Source of the DNA: a virus
Length of the DNA stretch: 64,000 nucleotides
IMG/VR virus record: IMGVR_UViG_3300043425_000861
Reading direction: 5' to 3' (one strand)
Part shown: piece after piece, positions 36,176 through 64,000 of the stretch
Layout: each line of letters opens with the position of its first letter
Numbering within the stretch: position 1 is the first letter of the stretch
Notes under the pieces: model-generated
Told to the model about the DNA's origin: nothing
Database searches by the model: none
Seen by the model: only the letters and a program-made list of their open reading frames with translations
Position numbers and translations under genes: made by a program

Positions 36176-36367
36176 ATGTTAATAATAGAAATTAAAAATG
36201 AAAAGAGTCTTGAATCTGCTCTTAGGACCTACAAACAAAAGGTTCAAAAAACAAAACAGATACAAAAACTCAGAGAAAGAGAAGAGTTCGTAAAACCTTC
36301 AGTTAAGAAAAGAACTCAAAAGTTAAAGGCGATTTACATAGAGTCAAAAAAAAATGGTCTTAATTAA
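36176..36367 (+). CDS. rpsU: Phage-encoded ribosomal protein bS21
   Basis: I.IK..SLESALR.YK.KV......LRER..F.KPSVKKR is the bS21 signature; antisense to the head genes, with its own late motif. Confidence 0.9.
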   Translation: MLIIEIKNEKSLESALRTYKQKVQKTKQIQKLREREEFVKPSVKKRTQKLKAIYIESKKNGLN

Positions 36368-60397: not shown

Positions 60398-60501
60398 ACT
60401 AATAAATATGACAATTGTCACTATTAGTATAAACTTTATATTATTTTAATTTGGCAATATTGCCGTGTTTTTAGATGTTAAAAAAATATTTTTAAACTTT
60501 T

Positions 60502-60533
60502 ATTGATTATATACATATTTATTAGTATCTTTG
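60502..60533 (+). promoter_or_regulatory. Bacteroidota-type promoter of tRNA cluster 1 leader
   Basis: ATTG (60502-05), 20 nt, TATCTTTG (60526-33). Confidence 0.6.
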
Positions 60534-60562
60534 TAAAAAGAAAAAACATTAAATAAAATTCA

Positions 60563-60661
60563 ATGAGACAATTTACACATATTATGTCGTTTACAATCTG
60601 TTCAAAATGGGCGGATGAGCGTTCTATGTCTATATGTCTCGATGATACTGATGTTGGTTAA
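60563..60661 (+). CDS. Leader peptide 1 (32 aa), putative attenuator of tRNA cluster 1
   Basis: MRQFTHIMSFTICSKWADERSMSICLDDTDVG*; A-rich initiation context; codons match the downstream tRNAs. Confidence 0.75.
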   Translation: MRQFTHIMSFTICSKWADERSMSICLDDTDVG

Positions 60662-60684
60662 ATTAGTTTAACTTAAAATATTAG

Positions 60685-60718
60685 AAAACCTCGGGACTTT
60701 AAAATCTCGAGGTTTTTT
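60685..60718 (+). terminator. Attenuator terminator 1
   Basis: AAAACCTCGGGA/TCTCGAGGTTTT plus U tract, ending 6 nt before tRNA-Ala. Confidence 0.85.
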
Positions 60719-60724
60719 GTTTAT

Positions 60725-60797
60725 GGGCCGGATGTCAATGGCAGACCACCTGATTTGCAATCAGAGTGAAAGGGTTCGATTCCCTACGTGTCCACCA
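60725..60797 (+). tRNA. tRNA-Ala(TGC)
   Basis: Loop TTTGCAA, G3:U70, encoded CCA; imperfect acceptor stem. Confidence 0.75.
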
Positions 60798-60859
60798 CCC
60801 CCGAGTTTTGGAGCTGGTACCTCCTTTTACCCGAATTGAAATTAAAAACTACCACAAAT

Positions 60860-60932
60860 TCTTAGGTAACTCAATGGTGAGAGTACCTCGCTGATACCGA
60901 GGAGGTTGGTAGTTCGAATCTACCCCTAAGAA
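60860..60932 (+). tRNA. tRNA-Ile(GAT)
   Basis: CCTCG-CTGATAC-CGAGG; TTCGAAT T-loop. Confidence 0.9.
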
Positions 60933-60937
60933 CATAA

Positions 60938-61010
60938 GGAGATGAAGCTAACTTAGTAGAAGCATCGGACTGAAAATCCGAAGGAGTTGGAGCGTAACCA
61001 ACTATCTCCA
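60938..61010 (+). tRNA. tRNA-Phe(GAA), atypical T-loop
   Basis: TCGGA-CTGAAAA-TCCGA; T-loop AGCGTAA. Confidence 0.8.
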
Positions 61011-61072
61011 CAATAAAGTAAAAAATGCTTAATAAAGTGAACAACTTTATTATACAAAAACAACTTTATTAT

Positions 61073-61146
61073 GACCTCTTAGCTCAGTTGGTTAGAGCAC
61101 CTCACTTTTAATGAGGGAGTCCCGCGTTCGAGTCGCGGAGGGGTCA
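61073..61146 (+). tRNA. tRNA-Lys(TTT)
   Basis: CCTCA-CTTTTAA-TGAGG; canonical cloverleaf. Confidence 0.95.
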
Positions 61147-61224
61147 CAATACGAATCAACCGGGTGGCTGAAACCTAACTAGTAGTGGAGAATACCCACA
61201 ACCCGGTCAATGTTCGTATTAACT

Positions 61225-61295
61225 ACGGGTGTAGTTCAATGGTAGAATTATGGTCTCCAAAACCATCGATGGGAGTTCGAATCTCTCCACCCGTG
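61225..61295 (+). tRNA. tRNA-Trp(CCA)
   Basis: ATGGT-CTCCAAA-ACCAT. Confidence 0.93.
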
Positions 61296-61363
61296 CAAAT
61301 TATATCTAAAAACATATAAAAATGAAAAAACAATTTGACAAGCATTAGTTAAACTAATGCAAA

Positions 61364-61561
61364 ATGAAAAACAAAGAAGAACGAGTAAAACAAATGAATT
61401 CAATTTACAATTATTGTTTCATTTGTAATAAAAGAAATGGTAGTTGGTATTATGATTGTCACCCATCAAGTTGGTATGTAAAACGACACGGAAATGGAAA
61501 AATCGTAAGACAAAGAGAGTGTAGAAGTTGGAAACACAACAGAAAAACCCAATGGAAATAA
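61364..61561 (+). CDS. Small basic Cys/His protein inside the tRNA array
   Basis: 65 aa; CFIC...CH; ends RSWKHNRKTQWK. Confidence 0.6.
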   Translation: MKNKEERVKQMNSIYNYCFICNKRNGSWYYDCHPSSWYVKRHGNGKIVRQRECRSWKHNRKTQWK

Positions 61562-61564
61562 TTT

Positions 61565-61636
61565 GGTCTCTTGGTGTAACGGATAGCACGGAACACTACG
61601 AATGTTTTAGTAAAGGTTCGAGTCCTTTAGAGACCT
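61565..61636 (+). tRNA. tRNA-Arg(ACG)
   Basis: GAACA-CTACGAA-TGTTT. Confidence 0.92.
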
Positions 61637-61695
61637 CTGTTCACAAAATATCGTTGTTCACGGTTCGTGAACAGAGAACAAACGTGAACAAATAA

Positions 61696-61768
61696 GTCAG
61701 GTTGGCCGAGTTGGTTTAGGTGACGGTCTGCAAAACCGTTTACATTGGTTCGAATCCAATACTTGACT
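61696..61768 (+). tRNA. tRNA-Cys(GCA)
   Basis: ACGGT-CTGCAAA-ACCGT; U73. Confidence 0.92.
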
Positions 61769-61770
61769 CT

Positions 61771-61846
61771 GTGATAGATGTTCGTATGGTAGGACCTAAG
61801 ATTGTGGCTCTTAGATTAGCGGGTTCGAATCCCGTCTATCACCCCA
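61771..61846 (+). tRNA. tRNA-His(GTG)
   Basis: TAAGA-TTGTGGC-TCTTA; C73 plus CCA; no encoded G-1. Confidence 0.88.
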
Positions 61847-61849
61847 TAT

Positions 61850-61919
61850 TGCGGGAAGGTTAGGTAACCCGCCAGGTCTCATAAGCCTGTGCATCCGAGT
61901 TCGATTCTCGGTCCCGCAA
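61850..61919 (+). tRNA. tRNA-Met(CAT), elongator-like with short D-arm
   Basis: CAGGT-CTCATAA-GCCTG; paired 1:72. Confidence 0.8.
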
Positions 61920-61938
61920 CAAAAAAGATTAAAAATAT

Positions 61939-61969
61939 TTTGTGATTTCACAATTTATTATTATCTTTG
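61939..61969 (+). promoter_or_regulatory. Internal Bacteroidota-type promoter before tRNA-fMet
   Basis: TTTG (61939-42), 19 nt, TATCTTTG (61962-69). Confidence 0.65.
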
Positions 61970-61979
61970 TAAAACAAAT

Positions 61980-62051
61980 CGCGAGATAGAGCAGCGGTAG
62001 CTCGGAAGGCTCATAACCTTTAGGTCGGGGGTTCGATTCCCTCTCTCGCAA
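61980..62051 (+). tRNA. tRNA-fMet(CAT)
   Basis: C1:A72 mismatch; GAAGG-CTCATAA-CCTTT. Confidence 0.85.
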
Positions 62052-62053
62052 CA

Positions 62054-62318
62054 ATAGGTGAAGACTGTGGTGGAAGCCCACGGTATATGAATCCCTAAAA
62101 GCTGTCTTGATTCGCGGTATCAAAGCGGTGCGGGTAGAGTTACATATAAGTCGGGAGTAATTAACCAATTGACGAAAATGTATCCACAGATATGGAGATA
62201 TATCTGTTATGATGTTCAAATGCGAACGAAAAACCTATAACTTATTGAGACTAACTCAACGAGGACTTTGTCAACCAGAGCAATGACTTGGATGGTGCAA
62301 CTTAAGGTGAGTTAGAAT
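62054..62318 (+). ncRNA. Unidentified structured RNA (about 265 nt)
   Basis: GC-elevated; nested helices ATAGGT/ACCTAT, ACTGTGG/CCACGGT, ACAGATAT/ATATCTGT, CTAACTCA/TGAGTTAG. Confidence 0.6.
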
Positions 62319-62325
62319 CAAAATT

Positions 62326-62399
62326 GGAGCGGTAGTTCAGTTGGTTAGAATGCCTGCCTGTCACGCAGGAGGTCGCGGGTTCGAGTCCCGTCCGTTCCG
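62326..62399 (+). tRNA. tRNA-Asp(GTC)
   Basis: CCTGC-CTGTCAC-GCAGG. Confidence 0.97.
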
Positions 62400-62406
62400 C
62401 AAATTT

Positions 62407-62492
62407 GGAGAGATGGCAGAGTTGGTCTATCGCGTCGGTCTTGAAAACCGAAGTTCTGAAAGGGACCGTGGGTTCGAATCCTACTCTCTCCG
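62407..62492 (+). tRNA. tRNA-Ser(TGA)
   Basis: TCGGT-CTTGAAA-ACCGA; long variable arm. Confidence 0.95.
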
Positions 62493-62497
62493 CACTT

Positions 62498-62569
62498 GCT
62501 CGGTTCGACTAGTGGTTAGGTCGCATCCCTTTCACGGATGTAGCACGGGTTCGAATCCCGTACCGAGTA
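62498..62569 (+). tRNA. tRNA-Glu(TTC)
   Basis: CATCC-CTTTCAC-GGATG. Confidence 0.95.
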
Positions 62570-62626
62570 CAAAATAATTTTTAACTATTTACACTTTTTT
62601 ATAATTTGTGTATACTTATTAAAACG

Positions 62627-62734
62627 ATGAAGAATATAAATAACATATTGACGAGTACAAGACCACTTACAAATGGTAATGGGTATGGTGTGCAACCGTT
62701 ATGTTACTTATGTTCGGATATCAATAAAGGATAA
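62627..62734 (+). CDS. Leader peptide 2 (35 aa), putative attenuator of tRNA cluster 2
   Basis: MKNINNILTSTRPLTNGNGYGVQPLCYLCSDINKG*; codons match the downstream tRNAs. Confidence 0.75.
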   Translation: MKNINNILTSTRPLTNGNGYGVQPLCYLCSDINKG

Positions 62735-62761
62735 TAGAAAATTATTAAAACTTATATCGAG

Positions 62762-62791
62762 ACCCGAACACAAAAAATGTTCGGGTTTTTT
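62762..62791 (+). terminator. Attenuator terminator 2
   Basis: ACCCGAACA/TGTTCGGGT plus U tract. Confidence 0.85.
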
Positions 62792-62811
62792 GTTTTGTAA
62801 TTTTTTATCTC

Positions 62812-62837
62812 TATATTTGAAATAGGTTCTTTGACAT
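62812..62837 (+). promoter_or_regulatory. Possible promoter -7 element and boxA-like antitermination site
   Basis: TATATTTG (62812-19) followed by GTTCTTTGACAT, resembling rrn boxA. Confidence 0.5.
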
Positions 62838-62852
62838 ATTGGAATAACGAAT

Positions 62853-62936
62853 GCCGGAGTGTTGGAATGGTAGACAAGACAGACTTAAAATCTGTTGAGC
62901 TGAAAGCTCGTGTGGGTTCGAGTCCCATCTCCGGTA
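62853..62936 (+). tRNA. tRNA-Leu(TAA)
   Basis: ACAGA-CTTAAAA-TCTGT; long variable arm. Confidence 0.95.
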
Positions 62937-62976
62937 CAAACACTATCGTTCTTTGAAGATAAAGGAGAAACATAAT

Positions 62977-63225
62977 ATGGATATATTATCATTTATTTTA
63001 GGAATGTCTATAGTTGTGGTTATTGCGGTTGCAGTAGTTGCGGTTATAGCCTTTGTTAAGGTGAACAGACTAAACAAAGAGATTGAATCGATTCACACAA
63101 TTTATTCGGGTGAATTTGAAAGGGTTAATAGAGATAGAACAGATTCGGAAAGACAGATTTATTCTGTGTTAGATTCTCGACTTGATAAACTTGAAAGTAA
63201 AATAACAAATAGCCGTAAGGCATAA
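62977..63225 (+). CDS. Single-TM coiled-coil protein inside the tRNA array
   Basis: Likely start MDILSF; TM helix, then DSRLDKLE. Confidence 0.65.
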   Translation: MDILSFILGMSIVVVIAVAVVAVIAFVKVNRLNKEIESIHTIYSGEFERVNRDRTDSERQIYSVLDSRLDKLESKITNSRKA

Positions 63226-63263
63226 AAATTAAATAAAACTTTCAAAGACGATAGTGTTAATTT

Positions 63264-63335
63264 GGGCCCATAGTTAAAGGGATATAACTTCTCACTTCTA
63301 ATGAGATGTTCGTGGTTCGAGTCCACGTGGGCCTA
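63264..63335 (+). tRNA. tRNA-Arg(TCT)
   Basis: TCTCA-CTTCTAA-TGAGA. Confidence 0.93.
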
Positions 63336-63336
63336 C

Positions 63337-63476
63337 AAAGATAATGGTCTGATGTTATAATTGTTGTCGACTAACATTATAACTACTTAAACAGACAGCA
63401 CCCTCTGCCGATGCATCGTAAAACTATTACTAAGCAGTTAAGATTGGAACGAAACGGGTATTCCAACATTATCTTT
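63337..63476 (+). ncRNA. Unidentified structured RNA (140 nt)
   Basis: Closed by perfect AAAGATAATG/CATTATCTTT; internal GTCTG/CAGAC, GTTATAA/TTATAAC, CTGC/GCAG and TTGGAA/TTCCAA helices. Confidence 0.6.
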
Positions 63477-63480
63477 ATTT

Positions 63481-63554
63481 TGGGAATTAGCGTAGTCCGG
63501 TATCGCGCTTGGTTTGGGACCAAGAGGTCGTCAGTTCGAATCTGGCATTCCCAA
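63481..63554 (+). tRNA. tRNA-Pro(TGG)
   Basis: CTTGG-TTTGGGA-CCAAG. Confidence 0.92.
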
Positions 63555-63561
63555 CAAAAAT

Positions 63562-63633
63562 GCTGATGTAGCTCAACGGCAGAGCAATTGACTGTTAATC
63601 AATAGGTTGAGATATCGTAATTCTCCATCAGCG
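63562..63633 (+). tRNA. tRNA-Asn(GTT), atypical T-loop
   Basis: ATTGA-CTGTTAA-TCAAT; T-loop ATCGTAA. Confidence 0.85.
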
Positions 63634-63638
63634 CAAAT

Positions 63639-63720
63639 GGCCAAGTGGTGGAACGGTATACACGTATGTTTTAGAAACATATGTCAGAACGGCGTGAGAG
63701 TTCGAATCTCTCCTTGGTCA
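63639..63720 (+). tRNA. tRNA-Leu(TAG)
   Basis: TATGT-TTTAGAA-ACATA; long variable arm. Confidence 0.92.
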
Positions 63721-63766
63721 CGGAAAACGGTTTGTATGTATACGTTAGGTTAGGAATGTACAGAAT

Positions 63767-63847
63767 GGGAGTATCGCATAGCGGCAATTGCAGAAGACTG
63801 TAAATCTTCCCTCATCGAGTTCAGTGGTTCGAGTCCACTTACTCCCA
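63767..63847 (+). tRNA. tRNA-Tyr(GTA)
   Basis: GAAGA-CTGTAAA-TCTTC. Confidence 0.95.
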
Positions 63848-63858
63848 CAAAATAAAAT

Positions 63859-64000
63859 ATGATGAGAACACTAAAAGAACTTATAAAGGAGATTAAATCT
63901 CCCGAATACAAACAAAAACAAATTGAAGAACATCAAAAGTATCTTGATGAGATATCGATGGATTATCAACTAGGTTACTACGTTGGTGAATATATTGTTA
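63859..64000 (+). CDS. Hypothetical protein, 3' partial
   Basis: MMRTLKELIKEIKSPEYKQ... open to the window end. Confidence 0.5.
   Translation, partial: MMRTLKELIKEIKSPEYKQKQIEEHQKYLDEISMDYQLGYYVGEYIV

Follow-up and report, generated by a model that had tools for sequence, protein, structure and literature searches.

The leader-peptide attenuators of Escherichia coli include trpL, hisL, leuL and pheL, the multivalent thrL and ilvL (ilvGMEDA), and pheM (pheST), and the mechanism by which such attenuators work has been summarised (PMC4833913). Here we describe two cassettes on the plus strand of IMG/VR virus record IMGVR_UViG_3300043425_000861, a stretch of 64,000 nucleotides (nt) analysed as a whole and called the window below, in which a short leader open reading frame (ORF) and a terminator precede a block of tRNA genes; very probably, they are ribosome-coupled attenuators that sense a shortage of any tRNA of the block, with a feedback loop. 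As in the amino-acid operon attenuators, the antiterminator strand lies in the 3' part of the short leader ORF, the terminator is intrinsic, and the control codons stop roughly a ribosome footprint short of the antiterminator strand. The differences are that the controlled genes are tRNAs instead of biosynthetic enzymes or synthetases; that twelve codon classes, mostly with one or two codons each, take the place of codon runs for one to three amino acids; and that the match reaches the level of isoacceptors, in two units that divide the whole code, in a phage. The cassettes would work in the manner of trpL or ilvL, yet they fall outside the family of amino-acid operon attenuators.

In function, the cassettes come closest to the inducible trn L-array of Anabaena PCC 7120, an extra set of tRNA genes that is turned on under impaired translation (PMC8421152); that array is bacterial, single and part of a global response, and its report mentions no leader, attenuation or block-wise codon match. 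Replacement of depleted host tRNAs, the likely purpose of the present blocks, is also the theme of work on counter-defence by phage tRNAs: tRNA-Tyr of T5 counters retron-Eco7 and tRNA-Lys counters PrrC (PMC11555353), and phage tRNAs with nuclease-insensitive anticodon loops have been described (PMC10264068). These studies treat the tRNAs themselves, the latter with no mention of a leader, terminator or attenuation. Finally, the state of tRNA also sets terminator read-through in T-box riboswitches, but T-boxes bind one tRNA directly and involve no ribosome, and searching the tRNA region against Rfam at E up to 1 matched neither a T-box nor any other riboswitch.

The anatomy of the cassettes is established (Table 1). 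There are 19 tRNA genes, all on the plus strand, at 60725-63848, and each leader ORF stops 24 to 25 nt 5' of a strong hairpin with a U-tract. In each cassette a frame-kept ORF with codons cognate to the tRNAs lies between a putative promoter and an intrinsic terminator 5' of the controlled genes, and in the folding model the antiterminator is mutually exclusive with the terminator and is covered by a ribosome that has moved past the control codons. An initial annotation, made from the sequence alone, had described both cassettes, the leader codons with their absent residues and isoacceptor splits, and a strand in each leader complementary to the 5' arm of its own terminator; all of this was correct on recheck. 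In cassette 1, tRNA-Ala begins 13 nt past the terminator stem, which leaves no room for a promoter, so that the first nine tRNAs need read-through. The same holds in relatives, where the first tRNA mostly follows the terminator 1 stem by 12 to 25 nt and a promoter is absent.

The sensing stretch of leader 1 contains codons for all 12 codon classes of its block, and 17 of its 21 codons belong to the block, the remainder being codons 2 and 3 and two Thr codons; not one of 15,989 windows drawn from coding genes of the phage is as complete in coverage. Set against the six tRNAs visible in the window, leader 2 offers modest evidence (P ~0.004 for coverage and share jointly). The initial annotation had forecast that block 2 would continue beyond position 64000 with Thr, Gly, Val, Gln, Ser-GCT and Ile2 tRNAs. 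A search of viral contigs did not recover the end of the window, whereas a leader-2 pattern search brought up near-identical metagenome contigs. The forecast came true for all six in one of these (L173), which is 99.9% identical to window positions 63235-64000: past the window end it carries a 181-aa ORF, a CAT tRNA of Ile2 pattern, Val-TAC, Thr-TGT, Gly-TCC, Gln-TTG and Ser-GCT before the contig ends. The completion of block 2 is thus taken from this contig and not from the window's own genome; the same continuation set is seen in other relatives. Against the completed block, leader 2 covers 12 of 12 classes with 23 of 25 codons in the block, and no window of phage coding genes (0/15,821) matched it in both coverage and share. 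The two completed blocks hold 12 classes each, overlap in none and jointly account for all 24 codon classes, with Gly-GCC and Gly-TCC merged to one class; codons belonging to the opposite block make up 4/21 in leader 1 and 2/25 in leader 2.

For a comparison among relatives, we collected 169 viral loci through searches with flanking genes and terminators, from which a codon-blind rule yielded 67 complete leader-terminator-block units in 23 leader families; Ile2 and Met were assigned by sequence pattern, wrongly in a few rows. Long ORFs that end before terminator 2 in the leaderless loci L022, L026 and L027 are the 3' ends of ordinary genes and were removed by an equally codon-blind criterion (an open frame of over 60 codons upstream). 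In the 19 families with blocks of at most 16 classes (one unit per family, leader codons 2-22), the Matthews correlation coefficient between leader and block was 0.55, compared to 0.04 ± 0.06 with leaders and blocks paired at random (at most 0.30; none of 40,000 shuffles attained the observed value), and in these families frames +1 and +2 and the leader tails matched at the null level. Where a block holds only one isoacceptor, the leader picks that one, as seen in the codon ratios of blocks with either isoacceptor for Ser (39:2 vs 3:19), Arg (18:1 vs 2:18) and Ile (52:1 vs 4:26).

Leader codons also follow tRNA genes that change place. In loci L014, L088 and L097, block 2 has taken over Asp and Ser-TGA, and the codons for both are gone from leader 1 and newly present in leader 2; in L080 and L091, it is block 1 that has acquired Val and Thr, with Val added to leader 1 and every Thr codon gone from leader 2; and in L148, where Gln and Ser-GCT are exchanged with Asp and Glu, both leaders follow. 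In the Pro-first group, leader 1 is homologous, with its ends unchanged and its middle rewritten. Over 12 rearranged blocks, codon counts went with the tRNA 52 times, stayed unchanged 8 times and went against it once, and a codon was present for 100/103 kept, 17/20 gained, 14/41 lost and 14/124 never-present tRNA classes; the blocks were hand-picked and are not independent events, so that P values from Fisher and sign tests on them are too small. Co-variation of leader codons with block content among relatives, which the initial annotation had anticipated, is thus established along with the codon match itself. On a quick tree of flanking proteins the arrangements are scattered: leader and block travel as one module that is shuffled among phages. 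The frame of leader 1 is kept in 35 relatives, with all 100 of 100 alignment gaps being multiples of 3, as are 44 of 45 in leader 2 (21 relatives); together this makes 144/145 inside the ORFs compared to 51/192 after the stop, and the start codon is kept. By this alignment pattern the leader frames are under selection, and we infer that they are translated. Among evaluable viral matches to the terminator sequences, 63 of 68 have leader and tRNA, a combination found in none of 61 bacterial contigs with the same terminator sequence.

The geometry of the leaders is established in the same comparison. With the antiterminator boundary defined by RNA pairing and not by codons, the share of in-block codons in 16 families is 0.85 to 0.95 at 12 to 4 codons before the antiterminator strand, falls to 0.62 at 3 codons and is at background from 2 codons on. 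This analysis omits L062, L104, L032 and L078, for which the search either gave no antiterminator strand or placed it beyond the ORF; the four are included in the 19-family statistic. As a ribosome covers up to ~12 nt downstream (PMC4833913), the codon match ends where stalling would cease to matter. The pairing is conserved as well: terminator 1 occurs in two sequence variants, of which the one present is the better partner for the leader strand in 29 of 34 relatives, and six bases of antiterminator strand 2 are invariant across 21 otherwise divergent leaders.

Folding of nascent RNA in the presence of a ribosome footprint predicts that antiterminator strand 1 captures the terminator 5' arm as long as the A site has not passed codon 22, and that strand 2 does so up to codon 25-26; at later positions the arm would be free, which places the switch at codons 22-23 and 26-27, respectively. 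Modelled arm capture in the 16 families averages 0.84 with the ribosome inside the matched stretch and 0.04 with the ribosome at the stop codon. These values give the polarity that the initial annotation had proposed, namely that stalling permits read-through. That stalling instead favours termination and shuts the tRNA blocks off is highly improbable, since in the model the arm is captured upstream only with the ribosome inside the matched stretch; we found no point for it, except that equilibrium folds favour the terminator in all states. On a ribosome-free leader 1, the antiterminator strand is predicted to pair with the 5' end of the leader, leaving the terminator arm mostly free. Such a 1:2 helix serves attenuators as a pause site and makes for termination on an untranslated leader; modelled arm capture with no ribosome is 0.25 for leader 1, where the helix is predicted, 0.58 for leader 2, where it is partial, and 0.67 on average over the families, where it is not general.

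Table 1. Features of the two leader-terminator-tRNA cassettes (positions in the window)
Feature	Position	Strand	Remarks
Promoter-like region 1	60515..60533	+	Phage-type ATAYTTAT, then Bacteroidota -7 element TAnnTTTG; pattern match only
Leader ORF 1, 32 codons	60563..60661	+	Sensing stretch, codons 2-22
Antiterminator strand 1 (codons 25-27)	60636..60642	+	Predicted to pair with 60691-60697
Intrinsic terminator 1	60685..60722	+	
tRNA block 1	60725..62570	+	Ala-TGC (atypical), Ile-GAT, Phe, Lys, Trp, Arg-ACG, Cys, His, Met, fMet, Asp, Ser-TGA, Glu (Met and fMet told apart by sequence pattern)
Internal Bacteroidota-type promoter before fMet, Asp, Ser-TGA, Glu	61939..61969	+	Full consensus match
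Promoter-like region 2	62588..62620	+	Phage-type ATAYTTAT at 62612
Leader ORF 2, 35 codons	62627..62734	+	Sensing stretch, codons 2-26
Antiterminator strand 2 (codons 29-31)	62711..62717	+	Predicted to pair with 62764-62770
Intrinsic terminator 2	62759..62795	+	U-tract doubles as -33 element of next promoter
Internal Bacteroidota-type promoter 3' of terminator 2	62789..62819	+	Full consensus match
boxA-type motif, copy of host rRNA-spacer motif	62824..62841	+	Identical 17-mer in Bacteroidota genomes
tRNA block 2, visible part	62853..63848	+	Leu-TAA, Arg-TCT, Pro, Asn, Leu-TAG, Tyr

In the switch that we propose, RNA polymerase would start 5' of the leader and a ribosome would follow it. If all codons are read promptly, the ribosome would come to cover the antiterminator strand, the terminator would form and transcription would end short of the tRNA genes; with any one of the block's tRNAs in short supply, the ribosome would wait at the corresponding codon, the antiterminator strand would capture the 5' arm of the terminator and the block would be transcribed. 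The new tRNAs would then relieve the stall, closing a negative feedback loop. Since most tRNAs are tested by one or two codons, the switch should respond when any single species is severely depleted. The shortage could stem from host anticodon nucleases, RNA decay in infection or the demand of late protein synthesis, among which the sequence cannot tell. A link to anti-phage anticodon nucleases is plausible, and we tentatively entertain, a little short of favouring it, the idea of a counter-defence sensor whose leaders together check every codon class, detect that an anti-phage nuclease has cut or removed any host tRNA and induce the replacement block.

Classical attenuators respond to uncharged tRNA, and a stalled ribosome cannot distinguish an uncharged from a missing tRNA; starvation should trip the switch too. 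It is nonetheless unlikely that the same attenuator has amino-acid starvation or a general slowing of ribosomes as its signal in place of the loss of particular tRNAs: the match is to isoacceptors and not to amino acids, it tracks single tRNA genes between blocks, extra tRNA is no cure for a lack of amino acid, and with general slowing the codon match would be needless. Because the match is at isoacceptor level, it points to tRNA supply and not amino-acid supply as the target of selection. Still less probable, in our view, is that the terminators are passed by means of a phage antitermination protein or bypassed from internal promoters, with translated leaders playing little regulatory part today. 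The conserved internal promoters, the boxA-type motif and the leaderless relatives that retain terminator 2 and tRNAs behind internal promoters would fit such a scheme, but it leaves the codon match, the co-variation and the end of the match at the ribosome footprint unexplained, and it does not suit the short promoterless gap between terminator 1 and the first tRNA in most relatives. The notion that the ORFs encode small functional peptides or arose by chance, with a match from codon usage or linkage, could draw on the movement of leader and block as one module; it is largely refuted, and we give it hardly any credence, as the code is divided between the blocks and neither leader uses many codons of the opposite one, leader families with no relation to one another still fit the block each belongs to, and homologous leaders rewrite their middle on a change of block with constant ends.

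Several observations weigh against ribosome-coupled attenuation as the control of these blocks. An isoacceptor split is absent for Leu (8:7 and 0:5), and single codons instead of runs may be too weak a sensor; runs of control codons are present in the small-block relatives L111 and L168. Antiterminator 1 of the window has only 7 bp, and the family average for antiterminators is not clearly above shuffles (p ~0.26). In the modelled full-length RNA at equilibrium, the terminator outcompetes the antiterminator in either cassette, and therefore the switch must be kinetic, that is, a kinetic trap. Internal promoters may bypass the control of four block-1 genes and of all of block 2. Lastly, the leaders are dispensable, given that L001, the sister of the window on flanking proteins, is without both: it lacks the counterparts of 60486-61917 and 62572-62777, a loss that takes in the two leaders and the nine tRNAs at the head of block 1, and retains fMet, Asp, Ser-TGA, Glu, Leu-TAA, Arg-TCT and Ile2.

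The gene content of L001 suggests a basal tRNA set from internal promoters and an inducible layer from the attenuators. Possible promoters at 61962 and 62812, already suspected in the initial annotation, are both full Bacteroidota consensus matches; the -7 element precedes fMet in 8 of 16 distinct fMet genes and follows terminator 2 in 15 of 23 Leu-TAA-first cassettes scored as leader-bearing. The initial claim that attenuators gate both clusters therefore stands strictly for the first nine tRNAs of block 1, whereas fMet, Asp, Ser-TGA, Glu and all of block 2 lie behind internal promoters, from which we infer basal expression, and there the attenuator probably adds onto a basal level. As leader codons still follow Asp, Ser and Glu, read-through seems to be relevant to these genes too. 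In the leaderless L001, L026, L027, L128 and L136, only Leu-TAA, Arg-TCT and Ile2 stand behind terminator 2; they read the A/T-rich codons TTA, AGA and ATA and could be a constitutive codon-compensation set. Promoter 1 and the internal promoter before fMet have a common 22-nt repeat (60517-60538 and 61953-61974), and the stretch missing from L001 spans roughly between its two copies.

Both motifs of promoter-like region 1 are retained in most relatives, and in promoter-like region 2 the host -7 element is degenerate in the window and intact in many relatives. The motif ATAYTTAT, a probable phage-specific promoter, has 17 sites in the window (e.g. 13555, 16426, 27704, 36149, 60515, 62612), mostly just 5' of gene starts and on the coding strand. 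boxA antitermination signals are located in 16S-23S spacers. The boxA-type 17-mer before block 2 has 3 and 2 copies in two Bacteroidota genomes, and the three copies examined lie in 16S-23S spacers; a further boxA-type site is found at 62948-62956. Among relatives the motif often follows Leu-first and Phe-first terminators and never Ala-first or Pro-first ones; it may help polymerase through the untranslated block 2.

The tRNA region has further features of its own. tRNA-Ala (60725-60794/60797) is atypical, being found by ARAGORN at lowered threshold only and scoring 29.7 bits in Rfam; it has two acceptor-stem mismatches and keeps G3:U70, and because the odd form is nearly invariant in 12 relatives it looks maintained rather than decaying. 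Nearly all tRNA genes at 60860-63848 have no encoded CCA end, so that CCA addition would be needed. Within block 1, a non-coding stretch at 62053-62245 is 72-99% conserved in ~50 loci including leaderless phages, and is possibly an RNA of a new type; an Rfam search gave no match and its folding signal is weak. A second conserved hairpin, at 62245-62322, shows compensating changes in the outer stem, is found also in the distant phage L047 and likewise had no match in Rfam. Between Leu-TAA and Arg-TCT, inverted arms (62939-62958 and 63239-63258) enclose a conserved 83-aa ORF (62974-63225) and may form a stem whose processing would release the mRNA from the tRNA transcript. The more distant L168, L105, L111 and L073 carry at least three small blocks per locus, each behind a leader, and in some of them the control codons come in runs. 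At lowered threshold, ARAGORN reports tRNA-like genes with stop-codon anticodons (TTA in L051, L053 and L054; CTA in L010, L073, L076 and L116), which may be suppressors or decayed genes.

We assign the window, whose G+C content is ~32%, to a large bS21-type Bacteroidota phage of lake origin. Its bS21 gene (36176-36367) lies on the strand opposite to the genes for terminase (TerL), portal, prohead protease and capsid, a layout in common with the bS21-encoding freshwater Bacteroidetes phages described, with genomes of 293-331 kb and 5-25 tRNAs, in the accessible part of PMC9723584; there the tRNA genes are counted and nothing is said on their control. Among the cultured phages compared, none was similar to the tRNA region beyond single tRNAs.

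A literature search, with subscription papers largely beyond reach, found no published account of such control of tRNA genes. The mechanism is that of classical attenuation; what departs from it is the tRNA target, the twelve-way logic and the phage setting. If true, this would be, judging from the literature found, the first case of tRNA genes under ribosome-coupled attenuation, and a feedback loop by which the speed of decoding lets tRNA govern its own transcription. Some 25 leader codons predict the tRNA content of a phage, and the leaders could be put to use as small biosensors of defences that cut tRNA. It has long been asked why phages carry so many tRNAs, with codon compensation and the replacement of destroyed host tRNAs as the two answers; a switch that answers to tRNA shortage itself would argue for replacement on demand, which is testable by a simple reporter.

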